A model generated the notes under the pieces. That model saw only the letters and a program-made list of their open reading frames with translations, was not told the origin of the DNA and did no database searches. Shown here piece after piece: positions 3,324 through 16,070 of a stretch of 64,000 nucleotides of DNA. The DNA is taken from positions 77,782-141,781 of the forward strand of contig CAVRAT010000015.1 in assembly GCA_963719125.1 (NCBI GenBank). Reading direction: 5' to 3'. Every line of letters starts with the position of its first letter. Position 1 is the stretch's first letter. Source of the DNA: an uncultured Acidimicrobiaceae bacterium (GTDB lineage: Bacteria; Actinomycetota; Acidimicrobiia; Acidimicrobiales; Bog-793). The translations under genes and the position numbers were made by a program.

Positions 3324-3788
3324 TCAAGCGCGCCGTTGTCGGCGCGTCGGCGAAGTCTGCGTTCGGTCCGCTCCGATGGCCGGCTTTTCGTTCTGACGGT
3401 AGGACTCGCCTTCTATGACGAGCTCCCAGGCGGCGCTCTTCAGCCGGTCGACTGCGGACTGGGCTAACAGCGGATCGGCCATGAAGCCCAGCCATTCGCT
3501 TGGGTCACGGTTCGAGGTCAGCACCGTTGCTGCGCAGTGATGTCTTTCGACGCAGATCTCATAAATGTCGGCCGTCTCGACCGAATCGAGGTGCTGGAGC
3601 GCGAAGTCGTCGATCAGGAGGAGATCGACGCCGATGAGCTTTCGCATCTCGGCGTCGTAGGTCGCGTCGAGACGTGCCGCCTTCAATCTCTTGAGCAGGC
3701 GGTCGGCCCGTTCGAAGTGCACCCCGACGCGTCGCCGGCAGGCGATGTGGCCGAGTGCGGTGGCGAAGAAGGTCTTCCCGACGCCAGG
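3324..3788 (-). pseudogene. istB: istB (IS21 helper ATPase), C-terminal fragment from the Walker A motif onward
   Basis: ..(S)PGVGKTFFATALG..LLLIDDFALQ..TSNRDPSEW..DRL.. are typical IstB/AAA motifs. N-terminal homology is lost upstream of GVGKT. Confidence 0.85.
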
Positions 3789-3836
3789 CGAGACAGCGAC
3801 AGACTGCAACATCTTCGGCGGTTGTTGCCTTGCGAG

Positions 3837-4106
3837 GTGCGAGTCACCTCCGCTGTGCACCCGCTGTTTGGGCGTCTGGTTCCGGCGACCGGTTTCAAAC
3901 GCCGCGAGGGTGTCCTGCTGCTGGTGGTGATCCTGCCGGACGGCTCGCCGGGCACGATTCCGGCCGACGCGACGAACGCGTTGGGAGAGCCACCAGTCGA
4001 AGTCGGCACGTCGGTGCTCTCAGTGGAGGGAGTACGTCGACTCCAGGCGCTGATCAGCTCGCTGGAGCCCCGACGATCCCGCTCTCGACGCCAAAGACGC
4101 AAATAG
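3837..4106 (+). CDS. DUF5372-like small protein (putative accessory protein of the LSR element)
   Basis: GTG at 3837. VHPLFGRL..ILPDGSPGTIPADATN..VLSVEGVRRLQALISSL resembles the DUF5372 ORF at 23371-23706 (HPFRPWSGREF..GVKHSLPLSWTDA..FRVDDLIVLADLV). Same position upstream of an LSR gene. Confidence 0.5.
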   Translation: MRVTSAVHPLFGRLVPATGFKRREGVLLLVVILPDGSPGTIPADATNALGEPPVEVGTSVLSVEGVRRLQALISSLEPRRSRSRRQRRK

Positions 4107-4206
4107 GCTCGCCTGACCCTGTACGCGCCAACGAACCGGGAGGTGAGCCTCTTTGCGAAGGCTCAGAATAGCCGCGCCCACTCAGCTGACCCTGGTCATA
4201 CCCGGG

Positions 4207-4341
4207 ATGGCTCCAACCTCGCAGCAATGTTGGTCGTTGCTGCCAGATACCAACCAAGCAGCGGTGCTCTCGCTGCTCGCCCGGATGATCGCCCGTGGCG
4301 TAGTTCTCGAGGAAGAGGGAGCTGCTGATGACGATCGTTGA
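4207..4341 (+). CDS. Possible small ORF overlapping the recombinase start
   Basis: ATG at 4207. ..WSLLPDTNQAAVLSLLARMIARGVV.. ends 14 nt into the recombinase gene. An analogous small ORF sits at 24415-24618 at the second LSR locus. Weak support. Confidence 0.25.
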   Translation: MAPTSQQCWSLLPDTNQAAVLSLLARMIARGVVLEEEGAADDDR

Positions 4342-6559
4342 GTCCTCCTCCAAGGTGAGCGCCAGTCACCTCGGTCGTGACGCCTACGTATACGTACGTC
4401 AGTCGACCCTCACTCAGGTGCGCGAGCACACCGAGAGCCTTGAGCGCCAGTACGAGCTCGCATTTCGCGCCCAGGCCCTTGGGTGGGCACCCCGTCAAGT
4501 GATCGTGATCGACGACGACCTCGGTCGTTCGGGCGCCAACGCGTCAGCACGGGAAGGGTTCAAGAACCTTGTCGCCCATGTCGGACTCGCCCGTGTCGGG
4601 ATCATCTTCGGGATAGAGGTGTCACGCCTAGCCCGCAACAACGCCGACTGGTATCAGCTGTTGGACCTCTGTGCCGTGACCGACACCCTCATCGCTGACG
4701 GGGACGGCATCTATCATCCGGCCGACTTCAACGACCGGCTCGTACTTGGGCTCAAAGGCACGATGTCGGAGGCGGAGCTGCATCTCATCCGCCATCGCCT
4801 GACCGCCGGGCTTCGACACAAGGCTGCCAAAGGCGAGCTGCGTCAAGGTGTGCCGGTCGGGTTCGTCTATGACGAGGCAGATCGGGTCGTCCTCGACCCC
4901 GACGAAGCGGTCATCGAGGCGATCGCAACGGTGTTCCGTCGTTTTGACGAGCTCGGGTCAGCGCGCCAGGTGATGTTGTCGATGCAAGGAGACGGTCTTC
5001 TCATTCCTCGCCGGCCGACCGGAGCCAGGCGGATCTCCTTCGCGACGGCAACATATCCGGCGATCCACGATTTCTTGACCAACCCGAACTACGCCGGTGC
5101 GTTCGTGTTCGGCCGAACCAGGACTGAGAAGCGCCTCGACGCTGAAGGGCGCTTAGTCGCTCGCGCACGGTTCCTGCCACGGGACGAATGGGCAGTCCTG
5201 ATTCCCGACCATCACCCCGGCTTTGTGTCCTGGGAGCGTTACGAGCAGATCCAAGACCAATTGCGGGCAAACTGGCGGGCCCCTCGTGGACATGGCGGCG
5301 GTGCGGTGCGAGAAGGCACGGCCTTGTTGCAAGGCCGACTTCGCTGTGGGCGCTGTGGGCGGATGATGCAGACCGGCTACTCAGGCGCCCAGGGCAACTG
5401 TCCCAGGTACGTCTGCGGGCGAGCACGCCAGCTCTATGGCAGCGAATCGATGTGCCAGAGCTTCGGAGGTCGAAAACTCGAAGCCCGCGTCCTCGACGAG
5501 GTGTTCGCTGTGCTCGAGCCCGCCGCGCTCGCGGCCACAGCTCTGGCGCTAAACGACGCTGAGTCCGCACATCGCCAGCGGCTGCACGCCTTTGAACTCG
5601 CGGTGGAGCGAGCACGATTCGAGGCAGAGCGCGCACATCGTCAGTTCGACGCTGTCGAACCGGAGAACCGCCTTGTGGGCCGAACTCTGGAACACGCCTT
5701 CGAGGAGGCGCTCAGCGCCCAACGTCATGCCGAAGCCGACTTGGCAACTCAGCGTGCCCGTCAGCCCACGCGTCTGAACGACGACGAACTGGCTTGGCTG
5801 ACTCGGGCGGGGGCGGATCTGCGCGCAGTGTTCCACGCATCGACAACCACTTGGCGGGAGCGCAAGCAGCTTCTGCGGGCCATCATCGCCGAGGTCGTCG
5901 TCGCTTGTCGCGGAGAAGACCATCAGGCCGATGTCACGATCGTCTGGGAAGGTGGCGCCTCCACGAGCTTCGTCCACGAGCTCAACAAACGTGGCGGCCA
6001 CTACCGAGCAACCGACGAGGACACCGTCGAGCTCGTTCGTCGCCTTGCTCAGCGTTATGACGACAGGACGATCGCGGCCGTGTTGTCCAAGCAGGGACGT
6101 CGGACCGGAACCGGTCTTACATTCACGAAGACGAGAGTCGCCAGTCTGCGCTTTTCGAGAGGCATCCCGGCCTTCCAGCCAAAGCTGGATGTCACAGCAT
6201 CGGACCATGATGTCGAGGTGGTCTCGATCACCAAGGCCGAGCAGATCCTCAAAGTCAACCGGACCACGATCTATCGCTGGATGCGCGAAGGCTTCATCGA
6301 AGGCGAGCAACTCACCTGCGACGGACCATGGCACATTCGCATCAACGACGAGGTTCGCAAGCGAATCGTGCCCGAGGTGCCCGAAGGCTGGCTCAATCTC
6401 GATCAAGCAGCCCGAGCCCTTGGGATCGCCCGCCAGACCGTGTTGCACAAGGTCCAACGCGGTGAGCTCAAGGCAGTCCACGTCAACCGCGGGAAGAGAA
6501 AAGGCCTGCGTATCCAGGTCGAATCCCCGGTCGCTGGACTGTTCGACACACCGTCATGA
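4328..6559 (+). CDS. Large serine recombinase (resolvase domain + recombinase domain + zinc ribbon + coiled coil + two C-terminal HTH modules)
   Basis: AYVYVRQSTLTQ (catalytic Ser), ..VSRLARNNADW.., LRCGRCGRMM..CPRYVC (zinc ribbon). The C-terminus has TIYRWMREG and TVLHKVQRGEL, which are excisionase/MerR-like HTHs. Confidence 0.9.
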   Translation: MTIVESSSKVSASHLGRDAYVYVRQSTLTQVREHTESLERQYELAFRAQALGWAPRQVIVIDDDLGRSGANASAREGFKNLVAHVGLARVGIIFGIEVSRLARNNADWYQLLDLCAVTDTLIADGDGIYHPADFNDRLVLGLKGTMSEAELHLIRHRLTAGLRHKAAKGELRQGVPVGFVYDEADRVVLDPDEAVIEAIATVFRRFDELGSARQVMLSMQGDGLLIPRRPTGARRISFATATYPAIHDFLTNPNYAGAFVFGRTRTEKRLDAEGRLVARARFLPRDEWAVLIPDHHPGFVSWERYEQIQDQLRANWRAPRGHGGGAVREGTALLQGRLRCGRCGRMMQTGYSGAQGNCPRYVCGRARQLYGSESMCQSFGGRKLEARVLDEVFAVLEPAALAATALALNDAESAHRQRLHAFELAVERARFEAERAHRQFDAVEPENRLVGRTLEHAFEEALSAQRHAEADLATQRARQPTRLNDDELAWLTRAGADLRAVFHASTTTWRERKQLLRAIIAEVVVACRGEDHQADVTIVWEGGASTSFVHELNKRGGHYRATDEDTVELVRRLAQRYDDRTIAAVLSKQGRRTGTGLTFTKTRVASLRFSRGIPAFQPKLDVTASDHDVEVVSITKAEQILKVNRTTIYRWMREGFIEGEQLTCDGPWHIRINDEVRKRIVPEVPEGWLNLDQAARALGIARQTVLHKVQRGELKAVHVNRGKRKGLRIQVESPVAGLFDTPS

Positions 6560-6587
6560 AGGGAGCGCGCAGTGTCAACCACATTCG

Positions 6588-6929
6588 ACTGGGCCCAAGA
6601 ATAAAGGCGTTGCGCGCTTGGTCGACAAAGCGCAGCGACACGAGCTCTGACCACACCGCCCGGTCGTAGGTGATCTTGGCGGTGTCGTCCCAGGCCTCGA
6701 GTGTCATCGTCGGGTCCAGCGTGGCCGCCCGAGCACGGCGACCGGCCGAGTCGCCGTCACGGCGCTGCACCTCGTCGGAGAAGAGCTGCTCCAAGAACTC
6801 CATGTGGGTGAGCTCGTGGCTGCGAGCGAGCGCCAGGCGCTCGGGCAAGGTGTCGAGGAGGCGGCCGAGCTTCAGTGATCTCATGAGCGACTTGAGCTCT
6901 GGAGAGACGCTCGGTGTGGGCGGCGTCAT
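6588..6929 (-). pseudogene. istB: istB N-terminal fragment
   Basis: ..LKLGRLLDTLPERLALARSHELTHMEFLEQLFSDEVQRRD..LEAWDD..SLRFVDQARNAFILGPS then homology stops. The ATG at 6929 overlaps the istA stop (ATGA), as in IS21 operons. Confidence 0.85.
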
Positions 6930-7403
6930 CGTCCCGCCTCCTTTGTCGTCGCGAACTCCGACGGGTCACGGGAAAAGCGCCCCTGTATGACGACGAGATG
7001 GGCAGGACTGGCCTCTTGTCCGAGGTCCTCGCGAGCGCGTTCGAGCATGCGGCTCACGAGGTTCACGTCGATCGCCTCGGCATCAAGTGCCCGGCGACAG
7101 GCCAGCTCGACGCGGCTCGGGCCCCACTTTTTCACGAGGCCCAAGAGCCGGTAGACCTGGCGCATCTTGGTCCACGGCAAAGGCGTGTCCAACAGCGCCT
7201 CGGCGTAGCGCCCGATCGCCTCGCCGTGCTGGGCCGCCAGGCGCCTCAACGCGTCGACGTCTCGTGTGGCGTAGATCTCCTTGCCGGTCGGGTAGTCCGC
7301 CGGGTCGGTCGAGCGCTGACCCGGGGCTTTTCGCGGATGGACCTTTATGAGCTCTCCGCGGAAGTAGAACTTCACCGTCTTTGAGTCACGCCTGGCCTTT
7401 AAG
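6926..7403 (-). pseudogene. istA: istA (IS21 transposase), C-terminal fragment
   Basis: ..KARRDSKTVKFYFRGELIKVHPR..LPWTKMRQVYRLLGLVKKWG..ACRRAL.. is a typical IstA C-terminus. It begins abruptly at the IS1634-type insertion. Confidence 0.85.
7398..7403. repeat. Left copy of 6-bp TSD (TTTAAG) of the IS1634-family element
   Basis: TTTAAG directly abuts both IRs (second copy 11427-11432). Removing one copy plus the IS restores istA in frame. Confidence 0.7.
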
Positions 7404-7478
7404 CGGAAGTTACGTCACCATGAAAGGGCATTGAGTCCTTCACGAGGGGAAATGCTGAGATCTCGACGGCTTTCCTGT

Positions 7479-8313
7479 CTACAGGAGGCGGAGGGGGACG
7501 TTTGCGCCGATGAGCTCGAAGGCCCGTCGCTGGACCTCGGTTAGCTGGGCGAGTTGCTCGAAGGTCTGATCTGTGCCCGGCACCGTACAGGTGTTGCGGG
7601 TGAGGGTCCCGAGATGGTCGAGGAGTCCCTGGAAGCTCTGCACGGGAAGCCCCTCCTCATTGCGCTTTCTTGCTGCCTTGCGGGCTGCAGAGGCCGAGCG
7701 TTCCGCTTTTGCCACCGGGTCGTCGCGAAACGGTGGTGCCTCGTCGGCGAAAGTGAGCGGGGCAAGGGCCCTGCGCAGGTGCCAGACGAGATGAGCAGCG
7801 AGCAGGCAGAGCAAGGCATGGGCGCGCACCCGGTCGGCGAGGCGGTGGCGGATGGGCCGGATCTCGATGTCGAGGGACTTCATGGAACGAAAGTCCCTTT
7901 CGATGCCGGCGAGCGACTTGTAGCTGCGCACGACGTCGGCCGCAGAGAGCCGCTTCGGCGCACAGCTCGTCCGCAGTACATAGATGCCGTCTAAGGCTGC
8001 CTCAGCGGCGATCGCCTCTTGTCTTCTCGAGAAGGAGAAGCTGCCCTCTTCGATGAACAGCTCGAAGTGCTTGGCCATCTTGTAGCGGTTGACGACCCGC
8101 CCCAGGCGAAGCCCGATCTTGGCCCGGTCCGAGAGGCGGCCCGCCACAACGGCGTCTTTTACCTTTGCGAGCTCGAGCTCGGTCGCAGACAAGAGCGCTT
8201 CGCGCTTTCTCGCCCGCTCGGTCGCAAGAGCCGGGTTGCGACAGCACACGAGGCGCTCGCCGGGGTAGTCCGGGTGGGTGATCTCGGCGAAGTTCACCTC
8301 GTCGAACAAAGAC
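7479..8313 (-). pseudogene. IS1634-family transposase, C-terminal fragment
   Basis: SLFDEVNFAEITHPDYPGERLVCCRNP..YVLRTS..VVRSYKSLAGIERDFRSMKS..IRPIRHRL.DRVRAH..LC: a typical DDE IS1634/IS4 C-terminal region. Confidence 0.8.
8306..8313. repeat. Left copy of 8-bp TSD (ACAAAGAC) of the ISL3 element
   Basis: ACAAAGAC abuts both IRs (second copy 10394-10401). 8 bp is the usual ISL3 duplication size. Confidence 0.8.
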
Positions 8314-8398
8314 GGCTCTCCTGACTCTTCCGTGGGTGGGAAGGTCGAACAGGTGTGCGATGTGAGTCCGACACGCGATTGTCGAGCAAGATGGGACG

Positions 8399-9040
8399 GT
8401 GGAGAACACCGCCTCGCGCTGGGAGCCTGAGGACGACGACGAGTACGAGTCGGCGAGGGCCGAGCTGAAGGAGCGCTTTGCAACCTGGGCCGCGAACGCG
8501 GGTGTCGCGATCGATCACGATGTGCCCGAGGGTCTGCTCCACTACAAGTGGGCATACGTCGATGGCCATCTCACCCGTTGGACGCGTCGCGACCTGAGCG
8601 AGATCTATCTCGAGCTCTACCCGGCCAAGGTCATGGCCGATCCCGACGAACTCGACGAGGTCCTCGCCGAGGCGAGGGCGTTTCTCACCTTTCTCTCTGC
8701 GACCGGACTGCTCGAGGAGGAGAGCGAGTCTGCCGAGGTCCTCATCGACCACCTCGACCAGATCGCAGGGCGATTCCGGGCGAACATGGCCGATCAGTCG
8801 CGCTACAGCTTTGGCAAGCGCCTGTGGACCGAGGCCGCAGCCGAAGGCGTACGGCCCGACGACCCCGCTGCGGTCGAGGCCTTCATGGCGCGCTTTAACG
8901 CCCGGCCCCGAGCCGAGCGGGACGCGATCCTCGGAGACGGTGTGAAGCCGGGGAGCCGCCGCGCACAGACGGGCCGGTTCACTCCTCCGGGAACCCCGCC
9001 CGGACCCGGTTCAGGAAAGCGGCGCAAGCGCCGGAGATGA
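8399..9040 (+). CDS. Hypothetical acidic protein with basic C-terminal tail (passenger gene of the ISL3 element)
   Basis: 213-aa ORF with high GC3 and protein-like composition. It lies inside the IS between the left IR and the 3' end of the transposase gene (convergent, 30-nt overlap). No family recognised. Confidence 0.55.
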   Translation: MENTASRWEPEDDDEYESARAELKERFATWAANAGVAIDHDVPEGLLHYKWAYVDGHLTRWTRRDLSEIYLELYPAKVMADPDELDEVLAEARAFLTFLSATGLLEEESESAEVLIDHLDQIAGRFRANMADQSRYSFGKRLWTEAAAEGVRPDDPAAVEAFMARFNARPRAERDAILGDGVKPGSRRAQTGRFTPPGTPPGPGSGKRRKRRR

Positions 9041-10279
9041 ACGGCCGGGCAGCGGGGGGCAGTAGCCGCCGCGGTCCAAGAGTGCGAGGGCGATCAGGTG
9101 CTCGGGATCGCGGAACCCGAACGCCATGCGGTGGAGCACGCGCAGCTTCGTGTTCGTCGACTCGACGAGCGCGTTCGAGACCTTGTGCAGCATCGCCGCC
9201 TCGATGCCCGGGAGGTGGCGGCGGATCTTCCGGCCGAGCTCGACGAACGCGGTGATGCGGCAACGCTGTGCCCAGGCGAGCCACTCGTCGAGCATCGTGA
9301 GCGAAAGCACGCCCTTTCGCCTGATCGCGAGACGGAGCTGCTCTTTCATCAGGTAGGCCCGATAGAGGGGCGAGTTCGTCTTCGCGATGGTCGCGAGCTT
9401 CCCCCGCTGGCGACGCGTCAGGTCCTCTGGGTTCTTCCAGAGGGCGAAACGCGCCCCCTTCAGCTCGCGCGCGTGCTCGGTCATGCCGGATCGGCGAGCG
9501 GAGTTCCAAACGTCGCGTCGCACCTCGTCGAGGGCGTCGGTCGCCCACTGAACGACATGAAACGCGTCGATGCATAGCGTCGCGTTCAAGCAGCGCTCTC
9601 GCACGACATCCGCGATCCACTCCGCTCCGTCCGCGGAGACGACGGTGATCCCGGCACAGCGTTCTTCGCCGACAAGGTCGAAGAAGCCCCGGAGCGTCTT
9701 CTTGTCCCGACCGACCGCCGCCCAGACGAGGCGACCCGAATCGTGATCCACCACCACCGTCAAGTACCGGTGGCGGCGCTTGTAGCTGATCTCGTCGATG
9801 CCGATGCGGCGCAGACCACAGAAGGGGTCGTGCGCCGCGCGTCCATCCGCGACGACGCGGGCGATGACCGAGCCGACCGTGCGCCAGGCGATGCGCATCA
9901 AGTCAGAGACAGCGGACTTCGGGGTGTGGGTGACGAGCCAGGCGACCTGGTCGTCGAAGTGCCGGGTGTGGCCCGCGCCGTGCCGCGCCCAGGGGACCTG
10001 GGCGACCGTCGGGCCGTGGGCGGGGCAGTTCACTCGCGGCGAGTCCGCCTCCAGGTAGCACTGGACGGTCCCGAGGTCGAGCGCTCGCCATCGTCGACGA
10101 CCCTCGCCCTGGTCATAGCCGGGAGCGCGCACCCCGCAGCGCCCACAACGACGCTTTGTCGACTTGCGCGGCCGGACGTGCGCGACCACGGCGTTCAGCT
10201 CCTCGTCGACCTCGACCGACTCGATCACCGTCGCCTTGTCGACACCGACCATCCGCCGCCACACATCGGCACCGAACAA
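9011..10279 (-). CDS. ISL3-family transposase
   Basis: zf-ISL3 signature ..RRCGRCG..GYD..RRWRALDLG.., then ..IGIDEISYKRRHRYLTVVVD.. and a DDE_Tnp_ISL3-like C-terminus. Confidence 0.9.
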   Translation of the reverse strand: MFGADVWRRMVGVDKATVIESVEVDEELNAVVAHVRPRKSTKRRCGRCGVRAPGYDQGEGRRRWRALDLGTVQCYLEADSPRVNCPAHGPTVAQVPWARHGAGHTRHFDDQVAWLVTHTPKSAVSDLMRIAWRTVGSVIARVVADGRAAHDPFCGLRRIGIDEISYKRRHRYLTVVVDHDSGRLVWAAVGRDKKTLRGFFDLVGEERCAGITVVSADGAEWIADVVRERCLNATLCIDAFHVVQWATDALDEVRRDVWNSARRSGMTEHARELKGARFALWKNPEDLTRRQRGKLATIAKTNSPLYRAYLMKEQLRLAIRRKGVLSLTMLDEWLAWAQRCRITAFVELGRKIRRHLPGIEAAMLHKVSNALVESTNTKLRVLHRMAFGFRDPEHLIALALLDRGGYCPPLPGRSSPALAPLS

Positions 10280-10393
10280 TGCCGTTCTCCTCGCCTCGTT
10301 TTCACGTCGCCGAACGGAGGGAGAACGTAGCCACGAGGTGGCGTTGCGTGCCTTTCAGCTGCTCAGAATGCCCACGGATCGGACACAAGAGCC

Positions 10394-10401
10394 ACAAAGA
10401 C
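10394..10401. repeat. Right copy of 8-bp TSD (ACAAAGAC) of the ISL3 element
   Basis: Identical to 8306-8313. Joining across it restores ..GPLQLSLFDEVNF.. in frame. Confidence 0.8.
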
Positions 10402-11303
10402 AGCTGTAACGGGCCGTTGTCTTGGGCGAGAGCTCTTATCTGCGGGGCACGCAGGGCGCTCACCCAGTCGAGCCCTCCGAGGCTTTTCAGTTCCTCGATG
10501 CGGGCGTTGGTGATCATGCCCCGGTCGCCGACGACGACGATCTCTTTTAGGGAAAAACGCTCCAGCACGGCCTTTAGCACGGCGGAGAAGGACTTCGGAT
10601 CGGCGGTGTTGCCTTCGAAGACCTCGATCGCAAGCGGGAGCCCGTCGCTATTGGCGATCACCCCGTACTCGATCTGGCGCTTTCCCCGCTTGCCGTCCCG
10701 GTTGTGGCCGAATGCTGCGAGCTCGTTGTGGGAGCCCTCGACATAAGAAGAGCTGAGGTCATAGCAAAGAATCGAGCCGTCGCCCAGATGCGAGGCGACG
10801 AGGGAGCCTTCGATGGCGTCCTTCTTCTCTAACAGCCAGTCCATCGCCTCGTAGCACTCATCAGAAGAGAGCCGTTCCAAGGCGAGGTCCACTGACAGGG
10901 TCGTGTTCAAGACCGCCCTCGTGTAGGCGAGCTTTGAGTCCGGCTCGATCACTTGGCCGACGAGCAGGGCGAGCGCTACGTCACGCTGGCGGCAAGGCGC
11001 GCCGAAAAGCTCATAGATGCCCGTCTTCTTCGCCATCTCGAAGACCAAGGCGGCACCACCGTGAAAAAGCGAGCGCTTGATGGCGATCGCCTCGCCGGCA
11101 GGCACGAACCTGTCGCCCGCAAGGCCACGGCGGACGAGCTCTAGGACCTCTTCGGGCAGGTGGCTCAAATTGGCGAGGGTCTCGTTGCGCACCTTGCCAT
11201 TTTCCCTATAGGAGCGCCGGAGCAGCTGCGTTTCGTAGAGCTTGCCTTTGTACTGTCGACGGATCGTGGCCACGTGCATCGCCCCACCACGCCGCACTGT
11301 CAT
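10394..11303 (-). pseudogene. IS1634-family transposase, N-terminal fragment
   Basis: MHVATIRRQYKGKLYETQLLRRSYRENGKVRNETLANL..CYDLSSSYVEG..GHNRDGKRGKRQIEYG..VVGDRGM. The true start is possibly the ATG at 11279. Confidence 0.8.
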
Positions 11304-11426
11304 GGCATAACTCTACCTCTAACCGGTCATGATTACCAGCATCTTCTGTCTACGTCTGGAAGGAGAAACAGAGCTGGACTCGCTGCTCAGGAGACAGAAA
11401 GCTCGTTAGAGCGGACTTAACTTCCG

Positions 11427-11432
11427 TTTAAG
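11427..11432. repeat. Right copy of 6-bp TSD (TTTAAG) of the IS1634-family element
   Basis: Identical to 7398-7403 and occupies the same codon phase in both istA fragments. Confidence 0.7.
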
Positions 11433-11874
11433 CGGCGACCGATGAACTGGTGTGGGATCGAGTAGAGCGCCTTGTCCACCTCGACGTGGAAGTCACGGTG
11501 CACCTTCGGCTCTGACCAGCGCGGGATGTCGAACGGTGTGCCCGGAAGAGCCAGGAGCTTGCCGAGTTCCTCGAGCCTGAACTCCTCGGCAGGCCGGCAC
11601 TGGGTCGTGCCGTGGATGCGCATGCCGGCGGTCTGTTTGCACCATGTCTCGGCACGTTCCCGGCAGTCGGTGAGGTCGACGAAGCTCTCACCGGCGAAGA
11701 AGTTCCTCCGCACGTAGGGCACGACGCGTTCCACCCGAGGCTTGTCGGTCGGCGTGGCGACGCGGGCGGCGTCGATCACAAAGCCCCGTGCCTGCGCGTA
11801 CTCGAGGAACGTGTCGTTGAAGCGAGGGGCGGTGTTCTCCGCCTCGATGACGATCGAGCTCATGTTGTCCGGAT
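11427..11874 (-). pseudogene. istA: istA middle fragment (end of the integrase core)
   Basis: PDNMSSIVIEAENTAPRFNDTFLEYAQARGFVIDAARV..DKPRVER..RIHGTT..YSIPHQFIGRRL matches the IstA catalytic-core to C-terminal transition. Confidence 0.8.
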
Positions 11875-11900
11875 TCTGTGCCCGACCGCGTTATGTGGCC
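11875..11900. repeat. RIT left terminal inverted repeat (26 bp)
   Basis: TCTGTGCCCGACCGCGTTATGTGGCC is the exact reverse complement of 15301-15326. Confidence 0.9.
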
Positions 11901-11958
11901 GATGACGACGATGTCCATCGATGACGCGGACTCTCTGCCGTCACCGGCCACATAACGG

Positions 11959-12969
11959 TCAGAGCGACGAGAGCCAATCGAGTAGTGATTCGTCCGAGCG
12001 CCAGACAGGACGAGAACGGGACCCCAGCGAAGAACCGGGAGGCTCCGTGTTCCGCAGCGCCTCGATCTTCGCTCGGGTGTTGATCTCGGCGTAGCGGTTT
12101 GTCGTGGTGAGATCGGCGTGTCCGAGCCAACCTCGGATGACGTTCACCTCCACACCGGCCTCGAGGAGATGAACCGCCGCGGTGTGGCGGAACAGGTGAG
12201 GGCTCACCCGGCGCTCGGAGCGAGCGTCGTCGAGGTGACCGACATGCCGCCGCACGATCTTGTAGATTCCGAAGCGCGTGAGTGGCGCACCGGTCGCCGA
12301 GGTGAACACGGGAGCGTCTGCCGCGCACGGCCTATTCGACGTGATGAGCAGCTGGTCGAGTAGAACCGTGGTCTCGCGCCAAAGCGGGCAGGTTCGCCAC
12401 TTGTCACCCTTGCCGTGGAGCCGAACAAGTCCTGCCTCACCAAGATCGACGTGGCCGACGCGGAGATCGGCGACCTCCTGCACCCGTGCCCCAGTGTTGT
12501 AGAGGAAGAGCAGCAGGCCGCGGTCCCGGAGAGCGAGTCGACCGGATTGCGGGAGGTCGCGAAACAGCGCCTCGATCTCGTCCCGCTCGAGGTAGTGGGT
12601 TTCAGCCGGCGCAGCACGCTTCGCTGGGATGGCCGCGACCCGCTGACAGATCCCGAGCATCTCCGGTTCCCGACTGGCGATGTACTCGAACAGCGTGTGC
12701 AGCACGGCCAGTCGCTGGTTGCGGGTGCGGACGTGATTGTGCCGATCTCCTTCCAGGTAGCGGAGGAACCCAAGGCAGCTCTCGAAGTTCAGGTCCTCGA
12801 GGCGGAGCTTGGTGATCTTCACCTTCTTGTCGCTGGCCACGAAGCACAGGAAGAGCCGGATGGTGTCCCGGTAGCTGCGCACAGTCGCCGGACGGAGTCC
12901 CTTCACCGCGATGAGATGATCGACGAAGAAGGAGTGGACGACCGGTCCGAGCGGTGTCGACCCGCTCAT
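11959..12969 (-). CDS. ritC: Tyrosine recombinase, third gene of the trio
   Basis: N-terminal SAM-like domain plus catalytic ..TGARVQEV.. / HLFRHTAAVHLL / LGHADLTTTNRYA (R..HxxR..H..Y). Confidence 0.9.
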   Translation of the reverse strand: MSGSTPLGPVVHSFFVDHLIAVKGLRPATVRSYRDTIRLFLCFVASDKKVKITKLRLEDLNFESCLGFLRYLEGDRHNHVRTRNQRLAVLHTLFEYIASREPEMLGICQRVAAIPAKRAAPAETHYLERDEIEALFRDLPQSGRLALRDRGLLLFLYNTGARVQEVADLRVGHVDLGEAGLVRLHGKGDKWRTCPLWRETTVLLDQLLITSNRPCAADAPVFTSATGAPLTRFGIYKIVRRHVGHLDDARSERRVSPHLFRHTAAVHLLEAGVEVNVIRGWLGHADLTTTNRYAEINTRAKIEALRNTEPPGSSLGSRSRPVWRSDESLLDWLSSL

Positions 12970-13919
12970 CGTCTGGCCTCACTCCACACCGGTTCGGTGA
13001 AGGCCTCGAAGCGCCTGTTCGCCTCGTCGATCAGCTGCGGCGTGATCGTGAGATAGACGGCGGTCGAGTCAGGGCTGACGTGGCCCATTAAGGTCGAGAG
13101 CCGGTACAGGCGGCTCTGCGGGTCCACCCCCTCCCGATACCAGCGCAACAGGCAGCCCACAGCAAAGGAATGACGGAGGCTGTGGAGCACGGGCGGGGAC
13201 ACGCCGTCGGGAACCGGAAGGCCGAGCGTCATGACGAGGCGGTGGAAGACCTGGCTCGCGCTCTGGGGATGGACGCTTCGCCGTCCGTCGAAGCTGAACA
13301 GCGGGTCGTCGGCGGTCCCATGGCGCCGTTCGACCTGGCAGGCGAGAACCTCACCGACGCGCGGACCGTGGGGAACGAGGCGGCTCTTGCCGAACTTGCC
13401 GCCGCGCACGACGAGCAGCTGACGGTCCGCGTCGACGTCGCTGATGAGGAGACTGCATGCCTCGCCGGCTCGCAGCCCGAGGCCGTAGCAGAGGGCGAAG
13501 ATGGCGTGGTAGGTGGACCCGCGGCCTCTCGCCCGCGCGTTGTCTGGAAGTGCCGCTGCGGCTTTGAGCAGCCGTCGCGCCTGGATGGTGTCGAAGAGGA
13601 ACGGCACACGCTGATCGGTCTCCCGTCGGCGGGTCCTTCGCAGCGGGGAGGCCACTAGGCGCTGTTGGCTGACCGCCCAGTCGAGGAAGCAGCCGAGGAC
13701 GTTAACGAGATGGTTGAAGCTGCGCGCTCGGGTCCGCGGTCGCGACGCGACGAAAACGTCGAGGAAGGCGGAGGTGAGCTCGTCCAGCTCGGTCACGCCG
13801 TGCTGATCGCAAAAGGCGAGAAACAGGTGAAGCGTCGCCTCCTCGGTCATGTACTTGCGACCGAGGGCGCGCTTGTGGGCAAGGAAGTCGCTGACGGTGG
13901 AGGCGAGCGCGGCGCTCAT
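12966..13919 (-). CDS. ritB: Tyrosine recombinase, second gene of the trio
   Basis: ..GLRAGEAC.. / HSLRHSFAV / MGHVSPDSTAVYL. ATGA overlaps with both neighbours. Confidence 0.9.
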   Translation of the reverse strand: MSAALASTVSDFLAHKRALGRKYMTEEATLHLFLAFCDQHGVTELDELTSAFLDVFVASRPRTRARSFNHLVNVLGCFLDWAVSQQRLVASPLRRTRRRETDQRVPFLFDTIQARRLLKAAAALPDNARARGRGSTYHAIFALCYGLGLRAGEACSLLISDVDADRQLLVVRGGKFGKSRLVPHGPRVGEVLACQVERRHGTADDPLFSFDGRRSVHPQSASQVFHRLVMTLGLPVPDGVSPPVLHSLRHSFAVGCLLRWYREGVDPQSRLYRLSTLMGHVSPDSTAVYLTITPQLIDEANRRFEAFTEPVWSEARR

Positions 13920-15184
13920 GCGAGCACCGCCTCGCCGTCACCGAGCGCGACCTCGCGGAGGCGCTCGATGGCGACCTTGGCGTAAACCTCGGTGGAGCGC
14001 GCCGAGCGATGCCCGATGAAGTCGCCGATCGTCTTGAGCGGGAAGTCCGCGTCGACGAGGCGCTGGACGGCCGAGTGACGCAGCGTGTGCGACCCCGGCC
14101 GGGGAACCTCGACGCCGGCACGCAGCAGGTAGGCGCGGCACAGCGACGACACCGCGGCCGCCCCGATCGGGCGCCGGGGCGCGACGGCGCGGAAGAAGAC
14201 GTGGCGATCGGACGTCGTCGGACGGCCATGCCGGAGGTAGTCGAGGATCGCCTCGCCGACCACGAGCGAGAGCGGGAACGCCGTGGAGTGACCGGCCTTG
14301 CGCTCGGGGACCCGGAGTCGGTCGTTCTTCCAGTCGATGTCGTCCAAACTGAGTGCCGCGACCTCCCGACCCCGCAGCCCGTAGGTGACGAGCAGGAGCA
14401 AGATCGCGTAGTCCCGCCGTCCCGCCTGGGTGCGACGGTCAACGCTGGCGAGCACCCGGTTGACGTCTTCCCAGGAGATCGAGCGGGGCACGTTCGAGAG
14501 CCGATACACCTGGGGCCACCCAACGGCGTTGGCGAGATCGGCATCGAGAACACCCTCGCGATGGGCGTAGCGCAAGAACACCCGGAGCACCCCGGCGCTG
14601 TCACGAACGGTGCTCTTCGCCAGCCCCGAGCCGGCGCGTTCGACGATGTAGGCGCTGAGGATCACTGGCGAAAGCTCGCCGATCGACTGGAGGCCGATCC
14701 GAGCGAGGTAGGCCTCGAAGCGGTCGAGGTGGTGGCGGTAGCCGTAGATCGAGGCGGGGCGCAGCCCGCGCTCTTCGACCAGGTAGTCGAAGAAGCCAGG
14801 AACGACGTCGACGAAGGGCTGGGGGTGAGGGCTCCGACCGGTTGGCTCGAAGCCGGGGAGCACCACCGAGAGCATCTGCTCGATCGGACCTCTCACCTCC
14901 TTCTCCATCGGTCTTGTTGAGCGGGTCCGTCGGTGATGGTCGGCGACGCGGTTGGTGATGAACGCGTCGACGTGGGCAGGCAACTCGCCGATAGTGTCCG
15001 CCCCACGCGCCCGACCGAACTCAGCAAAGGCGAAGACGATCGGCACCCGGCGCCAGACGCTCTTCGTGCTGAAGCCTTCTTCGACGAGCCAGGTGACGTA
15101 GGCCTCGATCTCGGCCGCGATCCACGAACCGCGCAGGCGATCGATAGTCGCCGGCTTGATGAAGTACTCCTCCAACATGGACAA
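13916..15184 (-). CDS. ritA: Tyrosine recombinase, first gene of the trio
   Basis: 422 aa. ..GLRGREV.. / HTLRHSAVQ / IGHRSARSTEVYA. The long N-terminal extension is typical of the first RIT gene. Confidence 0.9.
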   Translation of the reverse strand: MSMLEEYFIKPATIDRLRGSWIAAEIEAYVTWLVEEGFSTKSVWRRVPIVFAFAEFGRARGADTIGELPAHVDAFITNRVADHHRRTRSTRPMEKEVRGPIEQMLSVVLPGFEPTGRSPHPQPFVDVVPGFFDYLVEERGLRPASIYGYRHHLDRFEAYLARIGLQSIGELSPVILSAYIVERAGSGLAKSTVRDSAGVLRVFLRYAHREGVLDADLANAVGWPQVYRLSNVPRSISWEDVNRVLASVDRRTQAGRRDYAILLLLVTYGLRGREVAALSLDDIDWKNDRLRVPERKAGHSTAFPLSLVVGEAILDYLRHGRPTTSDRHVFFRAVAPRRPIGAAAVSSLCRAYLLRAGVEVPRPGSHTLRHSAVQRLVDADFPLKTIGDFIGHRSARSTEVYAKVAIERLREVALGDGEAVLA

Positions 15185-15300
15185 CCTCCTGTCTCTTTGT
15201 GATCTGAAACAGGAGCCTGTTGGAAACCACCGGCGTTATGTGGCGCAGAGTGACTGGAGCGGGTCGTTCACTAGGAAGCTGTCAGAGCGAGTGCCGGCGC

Positions 15301-15326
15301 GGCCACATAACGCGGTCGGGCACAGA
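15301..15326. repeat. RIT right terminal inverted repeat (26 bp)
   Basis: GGCCACATAACGCGGTCGGGCACAGA is the exact reverse complement of 11875-11900. Confidence 0.9.
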
Positions 15327-16000
15327 ACTGCGAAAATGTTCCGCGGAACATTTTCGGGGATGACGACCGGAAAGATCCCGCCGAAGAACCACCAGGCGGC
15401 CTCGAAGCCTTTGATCACCTCTTTGGTGGTCTGGAGAAACGTCGGCCACACGAACTGATGGCGGCTGTAGCACGCCGTGAAGATGAGCCCCCAGCACACA
15501 CGGCGATGCTCGCCGTCGGCCACGAGCCCGAGACGGCCGAAGTCGACCTGGACCTCGATACCAGGCGGCGGGTCGTCGACCCGCACCGTCGTCTTGCGCC
15601 TGCCAGCACCACAGCGCTCGACGGCAAAGCGCGCCAAGGTGCGGTGCGGGACCTCGATGCCGCGGCGACCAAGCAGTATCCCGATCTTGACGACGGTGAG
15701 GCCGTCGTCCACCCACTTGGTGATCTCGTCTTCCTGGGCGAGCAGAACCCGCCAAGCCTCTCCGTGGCCGTCGGGCCGGTGCGGGCGAACCCGTTCCACC
15801 ATCTGGCCGATCAGCTTGTCGGTGAGCTGCTCCTCGCCACCTGAGCGGTCGAGCCCGAGCTCGATCGCAGCTGAGATGTAGCGCCTCGCCGTCTTTCGGT
15901 CGATGCCGATCCCGTGAGCGATCGGGCGCTCACCCTCACCTTTCAGCCAGCGCCGAAGTGCCTCTTTGATCTGGACCACCGATACCTCCCTGAACGCCAT
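15327..16000 (-). pseudogene. istA: istA N-terminal fragment (HTH domains and start of the integrase core)
   Basis: MAFREVSVVQIKEALRRW..GIGIDRKTARRYI..VQVDFG..FTACYSRHQFV..FGGIFPVVIPEN, then homology is replaced by RIT end sequence. Confidence 0.85.
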
Positions 16001-16070
16001 CAGGCCTCCTCGGAAACGGCTTCGGAGGCCCAGCCGAATATCTCGTCGGCCGGGGGTGGTGGATGCTCAG

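Follow-up and report, generated by a model that had tools for sequence, protein, structure and literature searches.

The stretch of DNA analysed here, referred to as the window, comprises 64,000 nucleotides from an uncultured Acidimicrobiaceae bacterium (GenBank assembly GCA_963719125.1, contig CAVRAT010000015.1, hereafter C15, positions 77782-141781). At 11874-15359 it carries an intact recombinase-in-trio (RIT) transposon of about 3.49 kb, lodged in the istA transposase gene of an IS21-family insertion sequence (IS). RIT elements are known from eight phyla or more, both on plasmids and within genomic islands. Here, three tyrosine recombinase genes lie in the same orientation, in the order long ritA, ritB and ritC, with overlaps of 4 bp at 13916-13919 (ritA/ritB) and 12966-12969 (ritB/ritC). 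They are bounded by perfect 28-bp inverted repeats whose tips are 3454 bp apart (3452-3476 bp in relatives), within the 3.3-3.5 kb of a RIT unit. Each rit gene matches the gene at the same position in the genome's other trios and in trios annotated on plasmids, and the R...HxxR...H...Y residues are found in all three proteins after alignment to XerD (1a0p) and to an archaeal Xer (4a8e). A previous sequence-only reading of the window had proposed an intact RIT element with three overlapping tyrosine recombinase genes, and the gene trio, the repeats and the catalytic residues, together with Pfam matches and the Xer alignments, bear it out. The element shares the overlapping co-oriented trio, the size of about 3.45 kb and the inverted repeats with the ritABC elements of Cupriavidus metallidurans CH34, of pHG1 and of many Proteobacteria (Van Houdt 2009/2012, PMC3414803; Nielsen et al. 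2017, PMC5737581). By every structural criterion it is a member of this known family; what is newly resolved is the architecture of its end sites. The best explanation, which we consider probable on comparative grounds, is a RIT with dif-like recombination cores at its junctions and two further motifs per end, M2 and M3 below, that serve as accessory sites.

The closest matches of all three Rit proteins are XerC, XerD and XerA. The GLRxxE, HxLRH and GH motifs and the tyrosine are visible in the alignments of RitA, RitB and RitC; the catalytic lysine of RitA has no clear alignment. The ritA gene likely starts with the ATG at 15178, six bases past a GGAGG (15185-15189), a choice that we favour over the TTG at 15184 in the list of open reading frames. 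RitA also has an extra N-terminal domain, which AlphaFold2 (residues 1-115) models as a five-helix bundle with a predicted local distance difference test score (pLDDT) of 93.9. This domain gave no Pfam match and no significant Foldseek match to the Protein Data Bank (PDB); its best structural matches, the N-domain of Cre (E 1.5-8, template-modelling score 0.40-0.45), were not significant, and neither was its comparison by hhalign, as a second core-binding domain, with the SAM-like domain of RitA itself. The model of full-length RitA was poor (pLDDT 69, predicted template-modelling score 0.37), and its catalytic part matched only Xer, Cre and Tn1549 Int.

Each end of the element is built from short repeated motifs. 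The 11-mer GCCACATAACG, or its complement CGTTATGTGGC, is present at exactly four sites, 11889-11899 (-), 11947-11957 (+), 15234-15244 (-) and 15302-15312 (+), and nowhere else in the whole 3.92-Mb assembly. With at most one mismatch, six matches were found in the window against 0.62 expected, a number reached in none of 100 shuffles. The four sites had been described as one inverted pair per end, with spacers of 47 bp on the left and 57 bp on the right, which is exact. The terminal repeat had been given as a perfect one of 26 bp; it is indeed perfect, and it begins at 11874 and measures 28 bp. The motif recurs in degenerate form at each tip of this repeat, as TTCTGTGCCCG on the left (11874-11884) and as its complement on the right (15317-15327); this third copy matches TTATGTGGCCG, found 17 bp inward, at 9 of 11 positions. 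We call the tip motif M1 and the following motif M2, and M3 the inverted inner motif; the four 11-mers are the M2 and M3 motifs of the two ends. The M2-M3 gap, measured between GTTATGTGGCC and GGCCACATAAC, is 45 bp on the ritC side and 55 bp on the ritA side.

Is this arrangement maintained in other elements? RitB searches of genome and metagenome collections provided 97 loci (RitB 40-83% identical), and those from named genome bins are mostly from Actinomycetota. A pattern scan gave 121 ends, 90 of them distinct, in 79 loci carrying M1, M2 and M3. Every end has M1 at its tip (TTCTGTG[C/G]CCG, with C at position 3 in 83%) and M2 (TTATGTGGCC, with A at position 3 in 99%), and the inverted M3 is present in all except two. 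In a relaxed scan that did not impose the step, M1 and M2 were 17 bp apart, TT to TT, in 90 of 95 ends. The M2-M3 gap falls into discrete classes: 44-47 bp (37 ends), 54-58 bp (48 ends), 66 bp (two ends) and 79 bp (one end), with no end at 48-53 or 59-65 bp, and both main classes occur at ritA-side and ritC-side ends alike. The spacers themselves, grouped at 70-80% identity (chance identity being 53%), form 32 mutually unalignable sequence groups, 31 of which belong to one of three length classes. Length classes one helical turn apart, together with a free spacer sequence, indicate that the sites face the same side of duplex DNA. When pairing of the two arms was followed past the motif in 88 distinct ends, the ritA side equalled a shuffled-partner control, the ritC side was slightly above it at two positions, and no compensatory pattern was found beyond the 11-mer. 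As a consequence of the turn-spaced gap and of this absence of pairing, the 11-mers look like phased accessory sites rather than crossover sites. Conservation of the 11-mer arrangement in related copies had been put forward as a check, and the arrangement is kept, more strictly than expected.

The same layout extends well beyond the close relatives. Two other RIT families of this genome, one on contig C17 and a composite one on C26 and C29, have another word, TTATGCCG, in the same layout. In 12 RITs from plasmids of cultured bacteria (RitB 24-50% identical), we searched for any word that is repeated 17 bp further on and followed inward by its inverted copy. This word-free search matched elements of Burkholderia sp. 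YI23, Paraburkholderia phymatum, P. sabiae, Rhizobium, Bradyrhizobium (two strains), Sinorhizobium, Sphingobium, Phaeobacter and Bacillus sp. S3. Throughout these distant RITs, M1 and M2 are 17 bp apart and the inclusive M2-M3 span is 64-66 or 76 bp, which corresponds to the 45 and 55/56 gap classes. The RIT of the Burkholderia sp. YI23 plasmid byi_1p (CP003090) even has the same TTCTGTGCCCG / GTTATGTGGC motifs, and it splits an IS21 istA with an adjoining istB.

As judged from the flanking sequences, insertion is site-specific, at the P-D-N codons of IS21-family istA. That the element lies inside istA, as the sequence-only reading had stated, is confirmed by the joined flanks: their protein is one continuous match to the IS21 transposase model NF033546 of NCBIfam (161.9 bits, cut-off 160). 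Intact homologues from related genomes, at most 78% identical, read ...GTG ATC CCC GAC AAC ATG... (V-I-P-D-N-M) at the insertion point and have no palindrome there. The Asp at the insertion is, by position, D216 of D153 / D216 / E262, and the usual rve-type pattern would make it the second of the two catalytic Asp residues in the DDE motif. Among the relatives, the C-terminal flank aligns to the IstA of the window from P215/D216 in 26 loci. No empty insertion site was found in the same genome, where the sole homologous istA (C34:1-797, 83% identical to the N-terminal part in the window) stops with its contig at the codon where the palindrome of the window RIT starts. It is probably another RIT-interrupted istA that the assembler did not cross.

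This palindrome, CGAAAATGTTCCGCGGAACATTTTCG, had been overlooked. It is perfect over 26 bp (15331-15356), lies directly outside the right repeat, is unique within the genome and is missing from intact istA genes. Exchange cores can be drawn on both of its sides, the unused core and the hybrid core of Table 1, and the palindrome can therefore be described as two back-to-back half-sites, one for each adjoining core. The segment TCGGGG, on the istA side of the palindrome, we infer to be the crossover segment common to the element and to the N-terminal part of istA. Compared with the dif type, the arms of the window copy are degenerate: they read CACAGAA-CTGCGA-AAATGTT and, at the target, CACAGAA-TCCGGA-CAACATG. 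The palindrome arm next to the N-terminal part of istA (minus strand, 15334-15359) reads P-E-N-V-P-R-N-I-F in frame, with 8 of 12 bases as in P-D-N-M. Because PENV mimics PDNM, the alignment of the istA protein overruns the true junction into the palindrome. We also considered that the palindrome might be part of the target or a target duplication, and this was ruled out: it is missing from intact istA, is constant across targets and varies with the RIT lineage.

The junctions of the relatives gave a more general picture. Among 96 distinct flanks, 47 are palindromes, 43 are x-D-N and 6 are other sequences. Loci with one palindrome and one gene flank all have the same order: N-terminal part of the transposase, 6 bp, palindrome, 6 bp, repeat-trio-repeat, 6 bp, and (P)-D-N-[M/L]. 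In these loci the palindrome is always on the N-terminal side of the split gene. In complete elements it is next to ritA in 16 cases and next to ritC in 8, so that the trio is found in either orientation. Its sequence goes with the RIT lineage, being GATTATGTGGCGCGCCACATAATC in L014, L017 and L097, GAAAATGTGGCGCGCCACATTTTC in L006 and GAATATGTTCCGCGGAACATATTC in L004 and L010. The six bases at the repeat tip have the consensus TC[C/G]GG[C/G] on 43 target flanks and on 46 palindrome flanks alike. Clean 6-bp direct repeats were found, for example, in L007 (CCCGGA), L004 (GTCGGA) and L026 (GACCGA); in these three loci the gene is back in frame once the palindrome, the element and one repeat are taken out, and a circle junction reconstructed from the two ends is a perfect 32-bp palindrome between inverted repeats. 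All three 6-bp segments agree in 8 of 24 complete elements and agree in part in most of the rest, and the downstream junction shows 6-mers of both the target type and the element type. A dif-type layout is apparent in L014, GGGCACATAA-CCCGGA-TTATGTGGCG, and at the end of the C17 RIT of this genome, CCGCATAA-GTCCGC-TTATGCCGAGG.

Unusual arrangements also occur among the relatives. In five loci (L008, L019, L050, L073 and L098) the cassette sits between two C-terminal gene halves. A solo palindrome, AAATGTTCCGCGGAACATCT, is found in L148:1523-1542, a locus of a same-genus genome (G157, C5:253318-253344); it has no recombinase cassette and lies between two facing N-terminal halves, which come from different transposase genes. 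Locus L149, from another genome of the genus (G153, C76:95-3606), holds a RIT 83% identical to that of the window with palindromes on both sides. Its ritC-side flank is nearly the ritA-side istA junction of the window, gtcgtaatcccc-palindrome-gcag, including the unusual GCAG. The same istA junction is thus found on the ritC end instead of the ritA end, and the cassette must have turned relative to the junction.

Comparison of the copies establishes the positions of the sites, their conservation, the quantised spacing, the position of the target, the 6-bp repeats and the carriage of the palindrome; what we infer are the assignment of proteins to sites, the circular form, the points of cleavage and a tolerance for mismatched overlaps. 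According to the mechanism that we propose, strand exchange would take place at dif-like 11-6-11 cores and not between the 11-mers. A core would consist of M1, a 6-bp overlap (YCCSGA in the coding orientation) and a flanking half-site, provided either by one arm of the carried palindrome or by the target sequence (GA-CAAC-ATG). The element would be excised as, or copied into, a circle whose junction runs end, 6 bp, arm/arm, 6 bp, end. Either of the two equivalent cores of this circle could then recombine with the istA site ...CC-[C/G]-GA / CAAC-[A/C]-TG, exchanging the 6-bp overlap. A circle with two equivalent cores would account for the 6-bp repeat, for the upstream position of the palindrome and for the two orientations of the trio. 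M2 and M3 would be accessory sites in double-stranded DNA, on a fixed face of the helix, that load extra Rit protomers; these protomers would bend the end, or wrap it, so that a defined synaptic complex forms, in the way that accessory sequences act for lambda Int or for Xer at cer/psi. A mismatched overlap might be tolerated as in Tn916/CTnDOT, with bases of the former site carried along as in Tn554/SE; alternatively, flanks might be exchanged between copies. Finally, the unused core of an integrated copy could recombine with a second target on the same molecule, which would lead to inversion. The products would be a cassette between two C-terminal halves and a solo palindrome between inverted N-terminal halves. 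Both by-products are expected from the model, and both were found among the relatives.

With three classes of sites, and with C at position 3 of M1 against A in M2 and M3, a division of labour among the three recombinases is plausible. A more comprehensive reading, which we offer tentatively and regard as possible at most, would see these RITs as Xer-derived transposons that parasitise other transposons. They would home, through dif-like 11-6-11 cores, to the part of IS21-type transposase genes that codes for the second catalytic Asp, and would assemble a helically phased complex of eight sites (M1, M2 and M3 of each end and the two carried half-sites). One recombinase might be devoted to each class, namely M1 (TTCTG), M2/M3 (TTATG) and the arm of the palindrome or target, and the unused core might stay active and drive the inversions that leave solo palindromes and cassettes between two C-terminal halves.

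Several points weigh against the explanation that we favour. The three 6-bp segments of the window copy are unequal (CCCCGA, CTGCGA and TCCGGA), which may mean either that overlap mismatches are tolerated or that the flanks were reshuffled or exchanged between copies. The half-sites of the target are only weakly motif-like, and no sigma-70-like promoter was found for ritABC. In four metagenome contigs (L022, L024, L069 and L077) the element is flanked on either side by a palindrome with the N-terminal half of a gene, an arrangement that the simple model does not derive; in L022 the two palindromes, slightly asymmetric, are direct repeats of each other. Assembly chimeras are a possible cause, since most relatives are metagenome contigs in which the crossing of a 3.5-kb repeat may be chimeric and may have created some of the mixed flanks. 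Transposition of a RIT has never been achieved in the laboratory (PMC10214605). To these points must be added that the ritC-side end of the window copy folds strongly as single-stranded DNA (z = -4.7 and -6.6), so that hairpins may have a role.

The last point belongs to a different model, in which the M2-gap-M3 ends and the palindrome fold into hairpins, like integron attC or the attP of CTX phage, and the element moves through a single-stranded or hairpin intermediate. Hairpin-structured intermediates have been suggested for RITs by Nielsen et al. 2017 (PMC5737581), who also reported exonuclease-protected RIT DNA in which circle junctions could not be detected and RIT ends with 47/51-bp imperfect palindromes. 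These two findings count in favour of this model, as do the folding of the ritC-side end and that of the palindrome described here (z = -5.4). We nevertheless consider it unlikely. The ritA-side end of the window copy folds barely better than shuffles (z about -2), and in the 88 distinct ends pairing past the 11-mer is close to the shuffled control and shows no compensatory pattern. In attC it is the structure that is conserved over the sequence; in these ends the sequence of the 11-mer itself is conserved. Moreover, gap steps of 10-11 bp are expected from the helix face of a duplex and not from a hairpin loop.

A rather less likely model would make M2 and M3 operators, to which Rit proteins bind to autoregulate ritABC and to block read-through from the host gene, with no role in synapsis. 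Autoregulation at transposon ends is common among transposons, and the positions of the two M3 motifs, one upstream of the ritA start by 56 bp and the other abutting the ritC stop codon, would suit such a function. However, the ritC end, which has no gene to regulate, keeps the same strict geometry, and no promoter of the sigma-70 type was detected. An operator role is in any case compatible with an architectural role of M2 and M3 and does not exclude it.

The proposal of the sequence-only reading, that each terminus is a self-contained two-arm site with the inverted 11-mer pair (M2/M3) as the recombination site and exchange inside the 47-57-bp spacer, is very improbable, even though the inverted pairs are perfect, conserved and present once per end, because the element meets the target DNA at the inverted-repeat tip, 16 bp further out than M2 and not between M2 and M3, and because the spacers, in which the two ends of an element would have to be homologous, are unalignable among relatives. 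In known tyrosine recombinases (Cre, Flp, Xer and lambda Int) the two strand exchanges are 6-8 bp apart, and a gap of 45-57 bp is no crossover region for a tyrosine recombinase. There are three motif copies per end, the target junctions carry a 6-bp segment and a further half-site, and the two half-sites in the flanking palindrome borne by the element had been left out of the two-arm proposal.

Recombination at dif-like cores is in keeping with the Xer-like nature of the three Rit proteins. With XerC/XerD at dif, the RIT shares Xer-like recombinases and the TTATG core of the half-site, and the reconstructed cores of relatives have the 11-6-11 layout CATAA-N6-TTATG. The E. coli dif site is GGTGCGCATAA-TGTATA-TTATGTTAAAT and that of Frankia CACGCCGATAA-TGCACA-TTATGTCAAGT (PMC3025954). 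In the host genome, 85% complete, no dif site was found, whether CATAA-N6-TTATG was used as a pattern or the Frankia dif with as many as 8 mismatches allowed. Unlike the integrative mobile elements exploiting Xer (IMEX), such as CTX phage, and unlike pdif modules, the RIT brings its own three recombinases and targets a coding motif of the istA transposase gene, not dif; the two features of IMEX, lack of an own recombinase and integration at the host dif, are thus not found here. It also differs from Xer-exploiting elements in its six accessory or terminal sites and two carried half-sites. Exchange cores combined with distant phased accessory sites that would shape the synapse are reminiscent of the lambda-type integrases, with their arm sites, and of Xer at cer/psi. 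Unlike in lambda-type systems, the accessory sites of the RIT have the core sequence of the crossover half-sites, and no arm-binding domain could be identified. The presumed circle is common to Tn916/CTnDOT, Tn554 and SE/GInt, which use one or two recombinases with helper proteins and have neither inverted repeats of the RIT type nor a palindrome of back-to-back half-sites. Also in common is a 6-bp junction segment which, like a coupling sequence, may differ between the two ends and may be carried over from the former site (PMC10214605).

Occasional insertion in transposase genes has been reported for RITs (PMC3414803, PMC5737581). The accessible literature describes RIT ends as an inverted repeat of 28-34 bp with an overlapping palindrome, or as the 47/51-bp imperfect palindromes mentioned above; it terms a search for binding sites unconvincing and lists target specificity and movement as not tested. 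The three sites per end, the 17-bp step, the turn-quantised gap, the dif-like cores, the carried palindrome and the P-D-N rule go beyond these texts, and the description of the ends may partly be published already. The window copy and its relatives provide a falsifiable map of sites, with the bases of the ends, the expected point of exchange, the accessory sites and the relevant spacing, and a stretch of 15-20 bp of IS21 istA constitutes a defined natural target that can be used in a transposition assay. An uncharacterised transposition system is in this way turned into directly testable predictions. With dozens of relatives at the same istA codons, this is also a case of one class of mobile element systematically inactivating another.

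The RIT of the window is a single copy in its genome, and its nearest counterparts within the genus are 80-86% identical; the multiple identical copies per genome that would mark a mobile element were not found for it. The recent or continuing activity suggested by the sequence-only reading is thus no more than a possibility. Related copies sit in many different transposase genes, which supports mobility of the lineage, though not of this copy.

Table 1. Coordinates of the RIT element, its sites and surrounding or related features (window positions unless a contig is named; aa, amino acids)
Feature	Position	Strand	Remarks
ritA	13916-15178	-	420 aa; Pfam Phage_integrase match; extra N-terminal five-helix domain, aa 1-110
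ritB	12966-13919	-	317 aa; Pfam PF00589, 8.4e-17; Xer alignment
ritC	11959-12969	-	336 aa; Pfam PF00589, 5.8e-30; XerD alignment with R, HxxR, H, Y
Left (ritC-side) terminal inverted repeat	11874-11901	.	M1 11874-11884 TTCTGTGCCCG and M2 11890-11900 GTTATGTGGCC; TT to TT 17 bp
M3, ritC side	11946-11956	.	Inner, inverted motif GGCCACATAAC; M2-M3 gap 45 bp; ends 1 nt short of the ritC stop codon
M3, ritA side	15235-15245	.	Inner, inverted motif; M2-M3 gap 55 bp; lies 56 bp upstream of the ritA start
Right (ritA-side) terminal inverted repeat	15300-15327	.	M2 15301-15311 and M1 15317-15327 CGGGCACAGAA
Element-borne junction site	15328-15359	.	CTGCGA (15328-15333), half-sites AAATGTTCCG/CGGAACATTT back-to-back (15334-15353), TCGGGG (15354-15359)
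Unused core	15317-15343		CGGGCACAGAA-CTGCGA-AAATGTTCCG
Hybrid core	15344-15368		CGGAACATTT-TCGGGG-ATGACGACC
Target-side core	11861-11884 (plus strand)		Shown reverse-complemented (coding orientation): CGGGCACAGAA-TCCGGA-CAACATG
Target-side central (overlap) 6 bp	11868-11873	.	TCCGGA; holds the istA Pro/Asp codons
istA N-terminal part, aa 1-234	16045-15347	-	tblastn with intact homologue L103; target-derived sequence ends at about 15354-15360
istA middle part, aa 231-378	11872-11429	-	Starts with the P-D-N-M codons at the RIT end; cut at about 11428 by a later IS block
istA aa 378-538	7402-6929	-	tblastn with intact homologue
istB aa 16-147	6932-6543	-	tblastn with intact homologue
istB aa 131-284	3785-3327	-	tblastn with intact homologue
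IS block, 4 kb, at istA aa 378	about 7403-11428		IS1634-family transposase 10302-11303; ISL3-family 9011-10279
Large-serine-recombinase element in istB	about 3786-6542		Large serine recombinase gene 4328-6559
Intact RIT	C17:89961-93305		35-bp inverted repeat; TTATGCCGAGG motifs
Composite RIT	C29:77917-84879; C26:52177-57049		At least four recombinase genes; 94-bp inverted repeats; twice at contig ends
Decayed RIT-type trio	C15:57177-60153		

The same genome harbours at least three further, distantly related trios of the RIT type. The composite copy on C29 has a different flanking palindrome, TCCGTTACACCGATATCGGTGTAACGGA. As for the surroundings of the window element, a single IS21 copy (istA and istB, minus strand, 3327-16045) lies in five pieces as the result of three or more unrelated insertions, namely the RIT, the 4-kb IS block and the large-serine-recombinase element. 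Contig C18 holds two copies (4483-3857 and 131690-131064) that are 100% identical to the istA-truncating element of the IS1634 family (10800-11426), which was therefore recently active in this genome.

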